Below, in pieces: positions 1 to 29,372 of a DNA stretch of 47,362 nucleotides. A program made the position numbers and the translations under genes. Below the pieces are notes generated by a model. The model was given only the letters and a program-made list of their open reading frames with translations, was not told where the DNA came from and ran no database searches. Position 1 is the first letter of the stretch. Every line of letters begins with the position of its first letter. Location of the stretch: positions 1 to 47,362 of the forward strand of contig JBQCGJ010000094.1 of NCBI GenBank assembly GCA_051955775.1. Reading direction: 5' to 3'. Origin of the DNA: Gaiellales bacterium. Its GTDB lineage: Bacteria; Actinomycetota; Thermoleophilia; Gaiellales; JAICJC01.

Positions 1-9
1 TACAAATCC
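1..9 (-). repeat. possible truncated REP-like copy at the window edge
   Basis: TACAAATCC is identical to 25306-25314, the outer end plus flank of the REP copy at 25278-25310. The rest would lie outside the window. Confidence 0.3.
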
Positions 10-42
10 AGATCCTTGCATATACTCGGGGCGCCGGAGATT

Positions 43-76
43 TTGTAAAAGGCCGGGCTCGTGTACCCGGTACCGG
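43..76 (+). repeat. REP-like repeat copy (TTGTAAA-N12-TGTACCCGGTAC-CGG)
   Basis: It shares TTGTAAA and TGTACCCGGTAC, at nearly the same spacing, with the two repeats flanking the RayT gene (25278-25310 and 25933-25965). It lies 8 nt downstream of the glnA stop. Confidence 0.7.
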
Positions 77-23220: not shown

Positions 23221-23523
23221 TCACACCTGGACGAACACCTCGCCGTCTCGCACGACCACCGGAAACGCCTCCACGTCCTCGGTGGCGGGCAGCGCCAGCA
23301 CGGCGCCGGTGCGCACGTCGAAGCGCGCGCCGTGCCGCGGGCAGATCACGTCGAAGCCCTCCCTGTCGCCCTCGCACAGCGGCCCGTCGTCGTGGCTGCA
23401 GCGATCCTCGATCGCGTACAGCTCGTCGTCGATCCGGTACACACCCACGAACAGCGAGCCGGACTGGACGATGGTCACGCCGCCCTCGGGCAGCTCGTCC
23501 AGGCGGCCTACCCGGACTTCCAC
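23221..23523 (-). CDS. Rieske [2Fe-2S] ferredoxin-like protein (SUF-associated)
   Basis: CSHDDGPL ... CPRHGARF Rieske motif. GTG at 23523 overlaps the sufU end by 16 nt. The longer track ORF N-terminus is implausible. Confidence 0.8.
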   Translation of the reverse strand: MEVRVGRLDELPEGGVTIVQSGSLFVGVYRIDDELYAIEDRCSHDDGPLCEGDREGFDVICPRHGARFDVRTGAVLALPATEDVEAFPVVVRDGEVFVQV

Positions 23524-23933
23524 GTGATGCCGTCGCCGTCCTCGCCCCACTCGGGGGGCGCCTCGCCCTTGAGGTCGGCCAGCGCGACCCTGAGCACACC
23601 CACCGACAGCATCGCGCACTTCAGCCGCAGCGGCATCAGCGGGATCCCGAGCTCGTCCAGCACGTCGTCCTTGCCGATCTGCTCGACCTCCGACACGGGT
23701 CGGCCCTTGACCGCCTCGGAGATCATCGAGGCCGCGGCCTGGCTGATCGCGCAGCCCTGTCCGTTGTAGCGGACGTCCGTGACCACGCCGTCCTCGACCA
23801 GGAGCTCAACGGACAACTCGTCGCCGCACAACGGGTTGACGCCCTCGGCCGTGACCGTGGGATGGTCGAGATGCCCGTGGTTGCGCGGGTGGTTGTAGTG
23901 ATCGAGGATGTTCTCCCGGTACAGGTCGTCCAT
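23508..23933 (-). CDS. sufU: SUF system NifU/IscU-type Fe-S scaffold protein
   Basis: Motifs NPLCGDEL, GQGCAIS and LKCAML. Confidence 0.9.
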   Translation of the reverse strand: MDDLYRENILDHYNHPRNHGHLDHPTVTAEGVNPLCGDELSVELLVEDGVVTDVRYNGQGCAISQAAASMISEAVKGRPVSEVEQIGKDDVLDELGIPLMPLRLKCAMLSVGVLRVALADLKGEAPPEWGEDGDGITWKSG

Positions 23934-23969: not shown

Positions 23970-25217
23970 TCACACGCCGAAGGTGCGCTTGACCTTGTCC
24001 AACCCGCGGGCCAGCGCGTCCAGGTCCTCCACCGTGTTGTAGAGATAGAGCGATGCGCGGGCGGTCGCGACCAGGCCGTAGCGGCGCATCGCGGGCTGCG
24101 TGCAGTGGTGGCCCGCGCGCACGCAAACGCCATCGGTGTCCAGCACCTGAGCCACGTCGTGGGAGTGCACGCCGTCGACCACGAACGACAGCACCCCGCC
24201 GCGGTCGGGGGGCGGCGGGCCGTACACGGTCACGCCGTCGATCCCGGACAGGAGCTCGTACCCGTACTCCACCAGGGTCTGCTCGTGCGCGTGGATCGCC
24301 TCCAGACCGATGGCGGTGATGTAGTCGACGGCGGCCCCGAACGCGACCACCTCGGCCACCGGCGGGACACCGGCCTCGAACTTGTACGGAAGCTCGTTCC
24401 AGCTCGTGCGGTCGAGCCCCACCTGCGCGATCTGCCCGCCTCCGGTGAGGAAGGGATCCATGTCCCGCAGGAGCTGCTCACGGCCCCACAGCGCGCCCAC
24501 GCCGGGGCCGCACATCTTGTGGCCGGAGATCGCGTAGAAGTCGCACCCCAGCTCCTTCACGTCCACCGGCCGGTGGGGCGCCGCCTGGGCGCCGTCCACC
24601 ACCATCACCGCGTCCCGCTCGTGCGCCCAGCGCGACAACGCCTGGATGTCGTTCACGGTGCCCAGCGAGTTGGACACGTGGCCGGCGGCGACCAGCTTGA
24701 TGTTCTCGACGCTGCTCAGCTTCTCCAGCGACTCCGGGTCGAGCTCCCCGCCGTCGCCCAGCCGCAGGTAGTGCATGGTGGCGCCGGTGCGCTGCGCCAG
24801 CAGCTGCCACGGCACCAGGTTGGAGTGATGCTCCATCTCGGTGGACACGATGGCGTCGCCGGGGCCGATGAACTTGAGGCCGTACCCGTAGGCGACCAGG
24901 TTCAGCCCCTCCGTGGAGTTGCGGACGAAGATCACCTCGCTGCGGGAGCGGGCGCCGAGCAGGGCTGCCACCTTGTCCCGCGTGCCCTCGTAGCGTTCGG
25001 TGGCGGTCTCGCCCAGGCGGTACACGGCCCGGTGCACCGCCGCGTACGAGGTCTCGTACACGTCGACCAGGGTGTCGATGACCGCTCGCGGCTTCTGGGA
25101 CGAGGCCGCCGAGTCGAGATAGTGCAGCGGCCCGCCGCCGGGTGGGTTGGCCAGGATCGGGAAGTCCTGCTTCAACCGCTGGGCGTCGAGCGGCGTCTTG
25201 GCCGGGGCAACCGCCAT
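23970..25217 (-). CDS. sufS: cysteine desulfurase, SufS type
   Basis: Class-V aminotransferase (SGHKMCGP, RAGHHCTQP). Confidence 0.92.
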   Translation of the reverse strand: MAVAPAKTPLDAQRLKQDFPILANPPGGGPLHYLDSAASSQKPRAVIDTLVDVYETSYAAVHRAVYRLGETATERYEGTRDKVAALLGARSRSEVIFVRNSTEGLNLVAYGYGLKFIGPGDAIVSTEMEHHSNLVPWQLLAQRTGATMHYLRLGDGGELDPESLEKLSSVENIKLVAAGHVSNSLGTVNDIQALSRWAHERDAVMVVDGAQAAPHRPVDVKELGCDFYAISGHKMCGPGVGALWGREQLLRDMDPFLTGGGQIAQVGLDRTSWNELPYKFEAGVPPVAEVVAFGAAVDYITAIGLEAIHAHEQTLVEYGYELLSGIDGVTVYGPPPPDRGGVLSFVVDGVHSHDVAQVLDTDGVCVRAGHHCTQPAMRRYGLVATARASLYLYNTVEDLDALARGLDKVKRTFGV

Positions 25218-25220
25218 GCC

Positions 25221-25235
25221 TGCAGTCTAGATGCC
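25221..25235 (-). promoter_or_regulatory. promoter/operator-like motif shared with the sufC upstream region (contains a TAGACT -10 box)
   Basis: TGCAGTCTAG-ATGCC here versus TGCAGTCTAG-cg-ATGCC at 29373-29389. On the minus strand TAGACT lies 6 nt upstream of the sufS ATG and there is no SD. Confidence 0.5.
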
Positions 25236-25277: not shown

Positions 25278-25310
25278 CCCGTACCGGGTACAGGTTGGTC
25301 GCCTTTACAA
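25278..25310 (-). repeat. REP-like inverted repeat, left flank of RayT
   Basis: Its reverse complement TTGTAAA-GGCGACCAACC-TGTACCCGGTAC-GGG matches 25933-25965 at TTGTAAA and TGTACCCGGTACGGG. Confidence 0.85.
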
Positions 25311-25838
25311 ATCCCGCTCGACGTAGCGGCGCATGGCGGCGTCGCTCCCAAACTGGCGAAGAAACCAATCCGACCGCAGCCCCTCCGGCAGCCAGGCTCC
25401 GGACACCGATGCCGAATAGCTCGACCACCGCCAATCCTCGGGACGAGCGACGAGACCGGCCCTAACCGGGTTCAGCGCGATGTAGCGCGCAAGCTCGATT
25501 GCGTGCGACTCGTGCTCCACGAGCGCCGCGCGAAACCGGCTCTGGAAAACGTGCCCGACCCGCTCGTACAGCTTGTTGAACATCCTCGCGTATCCGAGCC
25601 CGATCGCCCGCATGCCCTGCGAGAGGTCGCCGTCGGGGGCCTGCAGCAGGAGGTGGTAGTGATTGTCCATGAGGCAGAAGGAGTGGCAGCTCCATCCTCG
25701 GCTCACCGCCTGCGTTTCAACCAGCCACAGAAACAGCTTCCTGTCGCCATCCGACCGGAAGATGTCCTGGCCTGTTGCGCCGCGGTTCGTGATGTGAGCG
25801 GTCGCGCCGGCGGGAAGCACACGTGGTGTTCGGGGCAT
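25305..25838 (-). CDS. REP-associated tyrosine transposase (IS200-like Y1/HUH family)
   Basis: DNHYHLLL (HUH) and RYIALNPVRAGLV...WRWSSY motifs. The ATG at 25838 gives MPRTPRVL. Confidence 0.85.
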   Translation of the reverse strand: MPRTPRVLPAGATAHITNRGATGQDIFRSDGDRKLFLWLVETQAVSRGWSCHSFCLMDNHYHLLLQAPDGDLSQGMRAIGLGYARMFNKLYERVGHVFQSRFRAALVEHESHAIELARYIALNPVRAGLVARPEDWRWSSYSASVSGAWLPEGLRSDWFLRQFGSDAAMRRYVERDL

Positions 25839-25932
25839 GCCCTCAACGTAACCCGCACGCCTCGCAGGATGAACCCCGTCGGGTCCTGATTTCACACTCC
25901 GGGCGCTGACTCGTCACACACAGTTGTAAAGA

Positions 25933-25965
25933 CGGGACACCTGTACCCGGTACGGGGTACTCCGG
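25933..25965 (+). repeat. REP-like inverted repeat, right flank of RayT
   Basis: TTGTAAA-GACGGGACACC-TGTACCCGGTAC-GGG. It includes the imperfect palindrome CCTGTACCCGGTACGGG. Confidence 0.85.
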
Positions 25966-25983: not shown

Positions 25984-27132
25984 TCAGGCGGGCAGGCGGC
26001 TTTCGATCGCCGCGGACACCCGCTCGCGGACGGGATCGGAGCCGATCCGCTCCAGCACGTCCTCGAAGAACCCGCGCACGATCAGCCGCTGCGCCTGACC
26101 CCGGGTCAGCCCGCGGGCCATCAGGTAGAACAGCTGCGCCTGGTCGACCTGGCCCACGGTTGCGCCGTGCGTGCAGCGCACGTCGTTGGCCTGGATCTCC
26201 AGTCCGGGGATCGGAGTGGCCTGGGCGTCGGTGGACAGCAGCAGGTTCCGGTTCTCCTGGTACGCGTCCGTCTTCTGCGCGTCCTTGTCGACGCGGATCA
26301 CACCCCGCCACACCGCCCGTGCGCGATCGTCCAGAACGCCCTTGAAGGCAAGGTCAGAGGTCGTGTTCGGCGCCCCGTGCTCCTGGGTGGTGTCGAAGTC
26401 GGCGTGCTCTCGCCCCGTCAGGTAGTAGGCGCCGGTGACCTTGACCGTCGCTCCCGGGGCCGCCAGGTAGTTCTCCATGCGCGACTTCGCGCGGTCGCCG
26501 CCGACGGCAGCCGCCACCCAGTCAAGCTCCGCGTCGCGGCCGACCGTGGCGCGGTGGGTGCCGAACTGCCGCGTTCCGGGGTCGTGCTCCTGCACGGTCA
26601 CGTACTCCAGCCGCGCCTCGTCGCCCACGATCAGCTCCACGACCACGTTCATGTAGACGGGGCCGGACGACCGGAACTCCTCCAGGAACGTCGCCTTCGC
26701 GCCCCGCTCGAGCACGATCAGCACCCGGTGGAACGCCGCGCTGCCCTCGCCGCCCAACTCGACCACGGAGCTCAGCGGCTGCTCCACCGACACCCCCGCG
26801 GGCACGTACACCAGCACGCCGTCCTGCCAGTGCGCGGCATTCGCCGCTGCGAACTTCTCGCCGTCGGGGACGACGGAGCCGAGATGCCGCTCGACCAGCT
26901 CGGGCCGCTCGGCGACCGCCTCGCCGAGGCGCATGAAGGCCACGCCGTCCGGCACGTCGCCACCCAGCTCGATGGCAGCCGGCTGCGGCTGGTAGCCGTC
27001 CGGGTCGAACCCGCGCAGGTTGGTGAACCGCCACGCCTCCTCACGGTTGGTGGGAACCGGCAGCGACTCGTACACCGCCAGCGCAGCCGACCGCTTGCCC
27101 GCCAGCCAGGCGGGCTCAGCAAGCGTGGTCAC
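25984..27132 (-). CDS. sufD: Fe-S cluster assembly protein SufD
   Basis: SufD-like beta-helix sequence. The GTG start shares 1 nt with the sufB stop (TAGTG). The 803-aa track ORF is an out-of-frame extension over sufB. Confidence 0.88.
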   Translation of the reverse strand: MTTLAEPAWLAGKRSAALAVYESLPVPTNREEAWRFTNLRGFDPDGYQPQPAAIELGGDVPDGVAFMRLGEAVAERPELVERHLGSVVPDGEKFAAANAAHWQDGVLVYVPAGVSVEQPLSSVVELGGEGSAAFHRVLIVLERGAKATFLEEFRSSGPVYMNVVVELIVGDEARLEYVTVQEHDPGTRQFGTHRATVGRDAELDWVAAAVGGDRAKSRMENYLAAPGATVKVTGAYYLTGREHADFDTTQEHGAPNTTSDLAFKGVLDDRARAVWRGVIRVDKDAQKTDAYQENRNLLLSTDAQATPIPGLEIQANDVRCTHGATVGQVDQAQLFYLMARGLTRGQAQRLIVRGFFEDVLERIGSDPVRERVSAAIESRLPA

Positions 27133-28559
27133 TATCCGACCGATCCTTCCATCTGGAGCTGGATCAGCCGGTTCATCTCGACCGCGTACTCCAGCGGCAG
27201 CTCCTTGGTGATGGGCTCGATGAAGCCCGACACCACCATCGCCGACGCCTCCGTCTCGGACAACCCGCGGCTCATCAGGTAGAACAGCTGCTCCTCGCCG
27301 ATCTTGGACACCGTGGCCTCGTGGCCGATGTCCACCGCGTTCTCCTTGATGTCGATATAGGGGTACGTGTCCGTGCGGCTGTCGTCGTCCAGGATGAGCG
27401 CGTCGCAGACCACCTTGGAGCGCGAGTTGACCGCCCCGTCGTTGACCTGCAGCAGCCCGCGGTAGGAGCTTCGGCCGCCGTCCTTGGAGATCGACTTGGA
27501 GGTGATCACAGACGACGTGTTGGGCGCCATGTGGGTGATCTTGCCGCCGGCGTCCTGGTGCTGGCCGCGGCCGGCGAACGCGATCGACAGCACCTCGCCG
27601 CGCGCTCCCTCGCCCTTCAGCAGCACCGCCGGGTACTTCATGGTGATCTGCGACCCGAGGTTGCCGTCGACCCACTCCATGGTGGCGTCGCGCTCGGCAA
27701 CGGCGCGCTTGGTGACCAGGTTGTAGACGTTGGTCGACCAGTTCTGGATCGTCGTGTAGCGGCACCGGCCGCCCTCCGCGACGTGGATCTCGACCACCGC
27801 CGAGTGCAGCGAGTCGGTCGAGTAGATGGGGGCCGTGCAGCCCTCCACGTAGTGCACGTAGGCGTCCTTGTCGACGATGATCAGCGTGCGCTCGAACTGG
27901 CCCATGTTCTCGGCATTGATGCGGAAGTAGGCCTGCAGCGGCAGCTCCACGCGCACGCCCGGTGGCACGTAGATGAATGACCCACCCGACCACACGGCCG
28001 AGTTCAGAGCCGCGAACTTGTTGTCGTTGTAGGGGATGATCGTGCCGAAGTAGCGCCGCACGATGTCCTCGTGCTCGCGCAGTCCGGAGTCCATGTCGAG
28101 GAACAGCACGCCCTGCTCGGAGAGCTCCTTCTGCAGGTTGTGGTAGACGACCTCGGACTCGTACTGCGCGCCCACGCCGGCCAGATACTTCTTCTCCGCC
28201 TCGGGGATGCCCAGCTTGTCCCAGGTGTCGCGCATGCCCGGCGGCAGGTCGTCCCAGCTCTTGGCCTGTGTCTCGACGGGCTTCAGGTAGTAGTAGATGT
28301 TGTCGAAGTCGATCCGGCCCAGGTCGGCGCCCCACTTCGGCAGCGGGCGCTCGGTGAAGTGCCGGTAGGACTTGACCCGGAACTCGGTCATCCACTCCGG
28401 CTCGCTCTTGTGCGCGGAGATCTCGCGCACCACCTGCTCGTCCAGCCCCTTGCGGGTGCGGAAGATGGGCTCGAAATCGTCGTGGAATCCGTACTTGTAC
28501 TCGCCGATTGCGGTTGCTTCGCGCTCGGCGTCTGTCAGCTGTGTCCTGGTGTCAGCCAT
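27132..28559 (-). CDS. sufB: Fe-S cluster assembly protein SufB
   Basis: Highly conserved SufB sequence (YKYGFHDD..., [17 protein letters not shown]). The ATG at 28559 overlaps the sufC end by 8 nt. Confidence 0.93.
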
Positions 28560-29334
28560 GATGGGCCACCGCCTCCTCGTCCACGCCGTACGGTGCGTAC
28601 CCTTCCCGCTCCAGCTTGTCGGCAACCTCGGGGCCGCCGGTCTCGACGATCCTGCCGTTCACGAGCACGTGCACGACATCCGGCTTGATGTACTGCAGCA
28701 GGCGGGAGTAGTGGGTGATCACGAGCACGCCCATGTCCGGGCCGGCCAGCCGGTTGACGCCGTCGGCAACGATGCGCAGGGCGTCGATGTCGAGCCCCGA
28801 GTCGGTCTCGTCGAGGATCGCCAGACGCGGCTTGAGGACCGCCATCTGGAGCATCTCCATGCGCTTCTTCTCGCCGCCGGAGAAGCCGTCGTTGAGGTAT
28901 CGCGAGGTCATGGAGCGGTCGATCTTGAGAATCTCCATGTTCTCCTGGAGCAGTTTGCGGAACTCCGGGATGCGGATCGGGTTCTCGTCGCCTTCGGGTG
29001 TCCGCCGGTGCGCGTTCACCGCCATCCGCAGGAAGTTGGCCACCGTCACCCCGGGGATCGCCGACGGGTACTGGAAGGCCAGGAAGATGCCCAGCCGGGA
29101 GCGCTCGTCGGGCTCCAGGTCGAGCACGTCGTGGCCCTCGAACGTGACCTCTCCGTCGCTCACCTCGTAGGCCGGGTGGCCCATCAGCACGTGGGCCAGG
29201 GTGGATTTGCCGGAGCCGTTCGGCCCCATGATTGCGTGCACCTGCCCGCGCGACATCTCCAGGTCGAGTCCGCGCAGGATCTCCGACCCATCGATCGAGG
29301 CGTGCAGATTGGAAACAACAAGATCAGCAGGCAT
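28552..29334 (-). CDS. sufC: Fe-S cluster assembly ATPase SufC
   Basis: Walker [10 protein letters not shown], signature [12 protein letters not shown] and Walker [19 protein letters not shown] sits upstream of the ATG at 29334. Confidence 0.93.
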
Positions 29335-29372
29335 GTCGTCCTTCCGGACGTGTACGGTCAACTAGCTCGGTT

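Follow-up and report, generated by a model that had tools for sequence, protein, structure and literature searches.

Background

Repetitive extragenic palindromic (REP) sequences and the REP-associated tyrosine transposases (RAYTs) are the main example of vertically inherited, domesticated transposase-repeat partnerships in bacteria. Genes of this kind already receive the label 'REP-associated tyrosine transposase' from annotation pipelines, and to our knowledge REP-RAYT systems have been studied almost only in Proteobacteria. For the REPtron, in which the gene stands between inverted REPs, our references are Nunvar 2010 (PMC2817692) and Ton-Hoang 2012 (PMC3333891), together with the structure of E. 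coli TnpA-REP, 4ER8 (PMC3479197). Among the TnpA-Y1 proteins, class 2 is defined by the tyrosine signature Y---NP (PMC6006769), and one of its branches is known under three names: subclass 2.1 (Quentin 2018, PMC6006769), RAYT Group 1 (Bertels 2017, PMC5581495) and TIRYT (Di Nocera 2013, PMC3733652). Subclass 2.1 combines the motifs NH[YF]H, FQ and Y[IV]xLNP (Table 1 of PMC6006769), GGGGWSAS is the signature of the TIRtron repeats (PMC3733652), and RAYTs have been found to descend vertically under purifying selection (PMC5581495). Here we compare with these systems a RayT-like transposase gene and its flanking repeats, situated between sufD and sufS in the suf cluster of contig JBQCGJ010000094.1, which we analysed at its full length of 47,362 nt; "the window" below means this complete 47-kb contig.

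We consider it probable that the unit is a REPtron/TIRtron-type locus, i.e. a vertically inherited class 2 HUH/Y1 gene, present once in the window and bracketed by inverted cognate repeats. The family, fold and motifs of the protein, the architecture of the unit, the co-variation of repeat and protein, synteny, purifying selection and the dispersed repeats of a sister genome were all observed directly. A first-pass annotation made from the letters of the window had proposed a REPtron-like unit of the RAYT superfamily with cognate inverted repeats, which is essentially borne out, and all the features listed there were found where it had placed them. The inverted cognate repeats stand, but the nearest branch is that of the TIRYTs, hence the unit is a TIRtron as much as a REPtron. 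The host is described as a soil actinobacterium (Gaiellales-like Actinomycetota), and the actinobacterial-type, high-GC genome supposed in the same annotation agrees with the GC content of 70% and with the Gaiellales found among the named relatives of SufD and GlnA.

The transposase and its family

From the stop codon of sufD (25984) to the start of sufS (25217) there is a gap of 766 bp that, as had been reported, holds one open reading frame (ORF). Counted from a GTG, this frame covers 25305-25895 on the minus strand; the true start is almost certainly the ATG at 25838, because the closest homologs are 177 aa long and begin at the equivalent ATG, so that the predicted gene occupies 25305-25838 and encodes 177 aa. 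Its features are as follows.

25305..25838, minus strand: intact gene for a RayT-like HUH/Y1 transposase of 177 aa (Pfam, NCBIfam, AlphaFold/Foldseek, motifs, dN/dS)
25659-25661 and 25653-25655, minus strand: codons of the HUH histidines H60 and H62 (motif alignment)
25482-25484, minus strand: codon of the catalytic tyrosine Y119 (motif alignment)
25305-25307, minus strand: TAA stop codon of the gene

The motifs NHYHLLL and RYIALNPVRAGL..WRWSSY, on which the first-pass annotation had relied, are both present in the protein; the other key motifs are VFQSRF and YIALNP, the latter with Y119, and H60, H62 and Y119 are the same in all 19 aligned members of its clade. Pfam finds only Y1_Tnp (3.4e-8). 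In NCBIfam the sole match is REP_Tyr_transpos (NF047646; 74.8 bits, E = 6e-21), with no match to transpos_IS200 (NF033573); across the clade the former profile is matched by 19 of 19 members and the latter by one (E = 0.008). A search of the PDB sequences with a profile of the clade returned 4ER8 as the only match, the motifs NHYH and YIALNP aligning to HmH and YiyiNP. The AlphaFold model (pLDDT 91) also has 4ER8 as its best Foldseek match (E = 4.3e-9, TM 0.65/0.70), whereas the IS200/IS605 TnpAs (ISDra2, IS608 and IS200) trail it by three to four orders of magnitude, with E-values of 1e-5 or weaker and a TMq of about 0.49. The HUH motif is thus accompanied by a catalytic tyrosine in the Y---NP context of class 2, and NHYH, FQ and YIALNP correspond to the key motifs of subclass 2.1. 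By profile, fold and motifs the protein is a class 2 TnpA(REP)/RAYT and not an IS200 TnpA, and the RayT-type identity preferred at the outset is backed by NCBIfam, the PDB profile match and Foldseek alike.

The nearest relatives outside the clade are 42-52% identical and 280-290 aa long (around 285 aa), and some of them possess HTH_23 or HTH_28 (PF13384 or PF13518). A C-terminal helix-turn-helix (HTH) extension (Bac_DnaA_C, HTH_23 or HTH_28) is absent from our protein, in whose 177 aa Pfam finds Y1_Tnp alone. These next relatives fit a placement of the protein close to subclass 2.1; judged from its sequence, it would be a short, HTH-less offshoot nearest to the TIRYT / subclass 2.1 / Group 1 branch and not to the classical REP-proliferating branches.

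The flanking repeats

The gene is bracketed by the 33-nt inverted repeats with TTGTAAA that had been noticed in the first pass. They have the form TTGTAAA-N11-TGTACCCGGTACGGG, lie at 25924-25956 on the plus strand and at 25278-25310 on the minus strand, and in a repeat search extend to 45 nt at 78% complementarity.

25924..25957, plus strand: upstream (5') repeat, TTGTAAAGACGGGACACCTGTACCCGGTACGGGG (repeat search; kept in the related loci L226, L043, L227, L228 and L044)
25278..25310, minus strand: downstream (3') repeat, TTGTAAAGGCGACCAACCTGTACCCGGTACGGG (aligned with six other 3' copies and two solo copies)

Read on the gene strand, the upstream repeat consists of the palindrome followed by GGTGTCCCGTCTTTACAA. 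At the other end the TAA stop codon of the transposase gene falls inside the TTGTAAA of the left (3') repeat, and in every intact locus of the clade the stop codon likewise lies within the tag of the downstream repeat. The pattern TTGTAAA-N8-14-TGTACCCGGTAC occurs three times in the window against 0.00 expected from 100 shuffles, and the 17-mer palindrome, allowing up to three mismatches, seven times against 0.19 expected. For the 3' repeat with its flank, a hairpin of 11 bp (CCAACCTGTAC/GTACGGGTTGG) is predicted, at -10.4 kcal/mol and z = -1.84.

The two conserved parts of the repeat had been described as separated by a variable spacer of 11 nt. A spacer does exist, but the upstream one is not random, as GGTGTCCCGTCTTTACAA ranks second of ~94,700 window positions with a weight matrix built from 117 GGGGTCAGGTCTTG repeats of TIRYTs, and matches GGGGTCAGGTCTTGACA at 13 of 17 positions. 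L226, L228 and L044 have the same TIRYT-core signal, whereas L043, L227 and L045 show it weakly or not at all; because it is weak in L043 and L227, the link between the inner repeat of the window and the TIRYT repeat core is only suggestive. The repeat thus appears to be a composite of the conserved tag TTGTAAAG, ~10 nt from a GGGGTCAGGTCTTG-type TIRYT repeat, and an outer palindrome with the core GTACCCGGTAC.

Co-variation of repeat and transposase

The comparison covers six further loci of the clade (L226, L043, L227, L044, L228 and L045) and a 3'-end fragment (L138). Inverted repeats flank the gene in all intact loci (the window, L043, L227, L044, L228 and L045), and because the type of repeat switches with the transposase lineage, repeat and protein can be said to co-vary. 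Type A, TTGTAAAG-N-(C)TGTACCCGGTAC(G/C)GG with the core GTACCCGGTAC, surrounds the gene in the window, in L043 (87% identity) and in L227 (82%); L226 (97% identity) has a complete 5' copy and a 3' copy that has lost the tag and its first bases to a deletion, and in L138 the 3' end of the gene is followed by a 3' type-A copy. In type B, found in L044 and L228 (74-75% identity), the tag is kept and the palindrome is GGTACCTGGTACC. Type C, found in L045 (65% identity), reads (G/T)GAAAGG and then CCGGTGCCAGGCA-NN-TGCC(T/A)GGCACCGG, with a short form CCGGTGCCAGGCA..TGCCTGGCACCGG. In types A and B, 9-11 nt separate the tag TTGTAAAG(G/A) from the palindrome; in type C, GAAAGG or TAAAGG adjoins the palindrome directly. 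Beyond the clade, most of 80 loci of ~285-aa relatives have inverted GGGGTCAGGTCTTG repeats, with ~33 nt between the upstream copy and the start codon and 0-17 nt between the stop codon and the downstream copy; these repeats bear the GGGGWSAS signature of TIRtrons.

Type-C repeats sometimes form short tandem arrays of a GTGCCAGGCAC unit (L279, L240, L266, L267, L283, L312 and L329). In addition, at L243:1098-1569 (Actinomycetes metagenome-assembled genome (MAG) MFD10007.bin.1.148) a transposase homolog of 47.5% identity has a type-C-like half-repeat directly downstream.

Inheritance and the sufD-sufS junction

L226, L043 and L227 have the unit at the sufD-sufS junction, just as the window does, and in L138 the 3' end of the RayT gene, the repeat and a methyltransferase are arranged as in L043. 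The identities to the window proteins are:

L226: RayT 97%; SufS/SufD ~99% (SufD 98.8%)
L043: RayT 87%; SufS/SufD 90%
L227: RayT 82%; SufS 87.5%

Because the identity of the transposase tracks that of SufS and SufD, and the ratio of nonsynonymous to synonymous substitution rates (dN/dS) of the transposase is 0.11-0.17, we conclude that the gene has descended vertically under purifying selection. It is present in one copy within the 47-kb window, and no close relatives were found on plasmids, where the best match is 43.8% identical and all are below 60%. The closest relative, L226, has lost the C-terminus of the transposase and the 3' tag to a deletion of ~190 bp, which fuses codon ~127 with the 3' repeat at its palindrome (L226:1155-1600), near a short ACCCGGT similarity.

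For the junction itself the comparison drew on SufD homologs and their contigs. Across these related genomes no clean empty sufD-sufS site was found, only alternative inserts. Some relatives lack the unit although they are about as distant as those that have it: in L229 (SufS 87.7% identical) it is missing and a GNAT remnant and an 87-aa ORF take its place (L229:11150-11809); L230, also without the unit, has an amidohydrolase-like gene (L230:11150-11821); and in L043 the transposase unit is accompanied by an S-adenosylmethionine-dependent methyltransferase (L043:3062-3778), an extra methyltransferase being likewise found in L138. Because the relatives carry different inserts there, the junction can be regarded as a variable slot. 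The first-pass annotation had found it noteworthy that the unit is lodged inside an essential suf operon; the position is confirmed, but the situation is less dramatic, with a junction that varies among relatives and a sufS gene that seemingly has its own promoter. For annotation purposes the sufD-sufS junction is thus a permissive slot rather than a disrupted operon, and the transposase unit accounts for the odd 766-bp gap within the suf cluster. We also considered a transposase-methyltransferase cargo pair, as methyltransferase genes come after the unit in L043/L138 and in L044/L228, and rejected it: the two enzymes are unrelated to each other (41% over 46 aa), and their genes stand outside the repeats.

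Dispersed copies of the repeats

Further copies of the repeat had been anticipated, and the repeat is indeed not unique to this locus: a third copy lies at the start of the window, and an orphan type-A copy (L011) in MAG MFD06085.bin.2.163. These are the only two type-A copies found away from any RayT gene.

43..76, plus strand: solo 3'-type copy TTGTAAAAGGCCGGGCTCGTGTACCCGGTACCGG in the spacer downstream of glnA (pattern search and alignment)
1..11, plus strand: TACAAATCCAG (contig start TACAAATCC), resembling TTTACAAATCC at the 3' end/repeat of the transposase gene (sequence comparison only)

Judged by its sequence, the TACAAATCCAG at the contig start may belong, as the inner end, to a second repeat in inverted orientation, in which case a doublet would be interrupted by the contig end. 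The tag TTGTAAAGG is retained in the solo copies, where it is noncoding. A scan of 185,579 representative genomes for type A returned 42 singletons, of which only L011 is real, and a scan of metagenomes 20 matches, of which only L138 is real, being a RayT-flanking copy. Four matches from Planctomycetota (L006, L017, L031 and L032) were discarded, as they share a near-identical TTGTAAAGGATCTGGTCCGGTACCCGGTAC stretch that is probably a conserved gene, unrelated to the repeat.

The picture is richer for type C. At least 16 type-C sites, in 14 stretches on at least 12 contigs, were found in MAG MFD06085.bin.2.163, and among the matches listed several Gaiellaceae and other Actinomycetes MAGs also have multiple sites. 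Ten of the 16 sites are clearly ORF-free and the rest ambiguous by a stop-to-stop ORF test, which is too lenient in DNA of 70% GC. The same MAG has the type-C gene of L045 on contig_32354 and, on contig_12101, the suf cluster of L229, from which the unit is missing; the orphan type-A repeat also belongs to it. Because the type-C gene and at least 16 type-C sites share one genome, the clade can be linked to genuinely dispersed families of repeats in one sister genome or more.

In L231 (GlnA 91% identical) the orthologous site after glnA is taken by a type-C repeat, and another such repeat lies 2 kb away. The spacer after glnA therefore has type A in the window (43-76) and type C, in opposite orientation, in L231 (11364-11398), so that either two insertions occurred here independently or one repeat type has given way to another. 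The orphan type-A repeat of L011 (1830-1920) adjoins a different palindrome with a 19-bp stem and GGGGTCAGGCACC; since the transposase of that genome is of type C, repeats of more than one family may have gathered here in a small cluster.

Weighing the alternatives

Several observations weigh against a REPtron/TIRtron-type locus. The GC content at third codon positions (GC3) of the transposase gene is 0.81, compared with 0.90-0.96 in sufB, sufC, sufD, sufS, sufU and glnA. Its NF047646 score of 74.8 lies below the curated equivalog cut-off of 80, which is a near miss that counts against equivalog status and not against relatedness. Predicted single-strand hairpins are not significantly more stable than shuffled controls, with z between -0.5 and -1.8 for most copies. 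The copy number of type A is low where measurable, with one extra copy in 47 kb, none in L043, L226, L227 and L044, and one copy of the exact pattern across the 185,579 representative genomes; moreover, subclass 2.1 has been reported to lack REP association (PMC6006769). Members of the clade occupy three or more unrelated loci (suf; upp/ATP synthase in L044 and L228; another one in L045), and it follows that, on a longer time scale, the unit has changed its place or been acquired anew.

Some of these points would fit better with an autonomous insertion sequence (IS) of the IS200/IS605 type, transposing as a whole unit and recently inserted into the suf operon: the three or more unrelated settings in which members of the clade are found, delimited precisely by the repeats, the GC3 below that of the neighbours, and the suf junction of MFD06085.bin.2.163, which lacks the unit although a 65%-identical gene is present elsewhere in that genome. 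We nonetheless regard such an element as unlikely. Its ends would be expected to be distinct left and right subterminal hairpins and not, as here, inverted copies of one repeat; there is no tnpB in the window and only a single copy of the gene; the tyrosine motif is Y---NP instead of Y---Q, the closest fold is 4ER8, the IS200 profile finds no match and the best plasmid relative is remote. The position is, furthermore, kept across lineages whose SufS differs by 1-12%, with a divergence that tracks housekeeping genes and bears the mark of purifying selection. A domesticated or decaying relic, in which the gene has another host function or none and the repeats are inert leftovers, seems slightly less likely still. 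The very low copy number of type A, the weak hairpins, the truncation of L226 despite its 98.8% identical SufD, and the junctions of L229 and L230, where the unit was lost or never gained, would all be natural for a relic; but the copy in the window is intact with all catalytic residues, its dN/dS ratio reveals selection on the protein, the tag is preserved in solo copies where it codes for nothing, the sister type-C system has its at least 16 dispersed sites, and orthologous intergenic sites bear lineage-specific repeat types.

We consider it very improbable that the palindromes serve the host in regulation or termination, or as binding sites for a dimeric protein, and flank the gene only incidentally. 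The solo copies do lie just after the stops of glnA and other genes, where terminators are found, and the core is a perfect double-strand palindrome. Yet the repeat changes with the transposase lineage and always flanks the gene in inverted orientation, its 3' copy overlaps the transposase stop in every lineage, a scan for T-tract terminators found nothing, and Rfam gave no matches. A REPtron/TIRtron-type locus thus remains our preferred explanation.

Neighbouring genes and putative promoters

The suf cluster on the minus strand has the order sufC, sufB, sufD, the gap, sufS, sufU, a Rieske protein and a DtxR-type repressor (Pfam).

28552-29361, minus strand: sufC (Pfam)
27132-28625, minus strand: sufB (Pfam)
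25984..27132, minus strand: sufD, upstream neighbour of the transposase gene (Pfam SUFBD_core, 1e-80)
23970..25217, minus strand: sufS (cysteine desulfurase), downstream neighbour (Pfam Aminotran_5, 2.4e-137)
23508-23933, minus strand: sufU (Pfam)
25839..25923, minus strand: region preceding the transposase gene, in which the -10-like hexamer TACGTT (25845-25850) stands exactly 6 nt before the ATG (TANNNT-N6-start in six intact loci)
25218..25229, minus strand: TAGACT-N6 before the ATG of sufS, hexamer at 25224-25229, a putative leaderless promoter (motif kept in L226, L227, L229 and L043)

The tail of the cluster (23221-23933) is unusual, with an overlapping Rieske [2Fe-2S] gene after sufU, followed by the DtxR-type iron repressor; in L227 sufU and the Rieske gene are fused.

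A scan for consensus sigma-70 promoters found nothing. TANNNT-N6-ATG/GTG, on the other hand, occurs at 9 sites in the window, compared with 0-4 for other spacers, and 7 of the 9 precede long ORFs of high GC3, including the transposase gene (25838) and sufS (25217), which suggests that leaderless transcripts are common in this genome. The positions on the minus strand are 38551, 32837, 25838, 25217, 7865, 5346 and 3678. Because this spacing fits the known architecture of actinobacterial leaderless promoters, we infer that sufS and the transposase gene each have a leaderless promoter of their own, which would explain why inserts are tolerated at the sufD-sufS junction.

Proposed mechanism and its implications

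By analogy with E. coli TnpA-REP, the enzyme would recognise the tag and the hairpin on single-stranded DNA, and Tyr119 together with the metal bound by the HUH motif would cleave and rejoin it. It would act in trans on solo or paired repeats, and the gene itself would remain in place, because the strand that the enzyme recognises is the plus strand at one of its ends and the minus strand at the other. Transcription of the gene would probably start from its own leaderless promoter, and expression of sufS-sufU from the putative promoter before sufS would be independent of the insert upstream. The unit would thus occupy a permissive, variable slot between two suf transcription units. Catalysis, mobilisation in trans and promoter function are, in this scheme, deduced from the comparisons above.

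It is tempting to regard the clade as an evolutionary bridge from TIRtron to REPtron, in which the HTH tail was lost, a repeat with a GGGGTCAGGTCTTG core gained an outer palindrome, and a REP family proliferates in some lineages. We advance this scenario only tentatively and consider it rather doubtful; if true, it would show REPs being born from transposase ends, and the composite repeat would be a sequence-level link between terminal inverted repeats and REPs. It would likewise mean an active REP-RAYT system in Actinomycetota, whose complete genomes were earlier reported to contain only IS200-type members. Independently of this scenario, a short HTH-less relative of the TIRYTs in Gaiellales, with lineage-specific repeats, widens the host range into Actinomycetota.

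Comparison with known systems

The unit has much in common with the REPtron of E. coli TnpA-REP. In both, a single-copy HUH/Y1 gene (the copy count here being that of the window) with a Y---NP motif stands between inverted copies of its cognate palindromic repeat, protein and repeat vary together, solo copies are intergenic and follow stop codons, and inheritance is vertical; 4ER8 is also the best match of our protein in both structure and sequence. However, the two proteins are only 18% identical, ours falls below the NCBIfam equivalog cut-off, and the tag differs, with TTGTAAAG at 9-11 nt from the palindrome here and GTAG (GT[AG]G) at the foot of the hairpin there. The type of repeat found here is of low copy number where measurable, and the host belongs to the Gaiellales-like Actinomycetota and not to the Proteobacteria.

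With the TIRtrons and their TIRYTs the unit shares the motifs NH[YF]H, FQ and Y[IV]xLNP, a downstream repeat that overlaps or abuts the stop codon, and a low to moderate copy number of the repeat. The inner part of its repeat has a suggestive likeness to the TIRYT core, and the closest relatives outside the clade, ~285 aa long and 42-52% identical, mostly have inverted GGGGTCAGGTCTTG repeats. On the other hand, our protein has 177 aa and no C-terminal HTH, as opposed to ~285 aa, the repeat of the window adds an outer palindrome and the TTGTAAAG tag, the upstream repeat lies ~85 nt from the start instead of the ~33 nt of the TIRYTs, and the repeat of a sister lineage is a long perfect palindrome at no fewer than 16 sites. 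The resemblance to IS200/IS605 elements such as IS608 and ISDra2 is confined to the HUH/Y1 fold (Foldseek E ~1e-5) and to ends with hairpins, predicted ones in our unit, as opposed to the Y---NP instead of Y---Q motif, the inverted copies of one repeat, the lack of tnpB, the syntenic, single-copy occurrence in the window and the absence of an IS200 match in NCBIfam. Thus, the unit is neither an IS200 element nor a strict GTAG-REP REPtron nor an HTH-bearing TIRYT, but mixes features of the last two; it is not a new kind of system, but a real and rather ordinary representative of the domesticated transposase units, a class already known.

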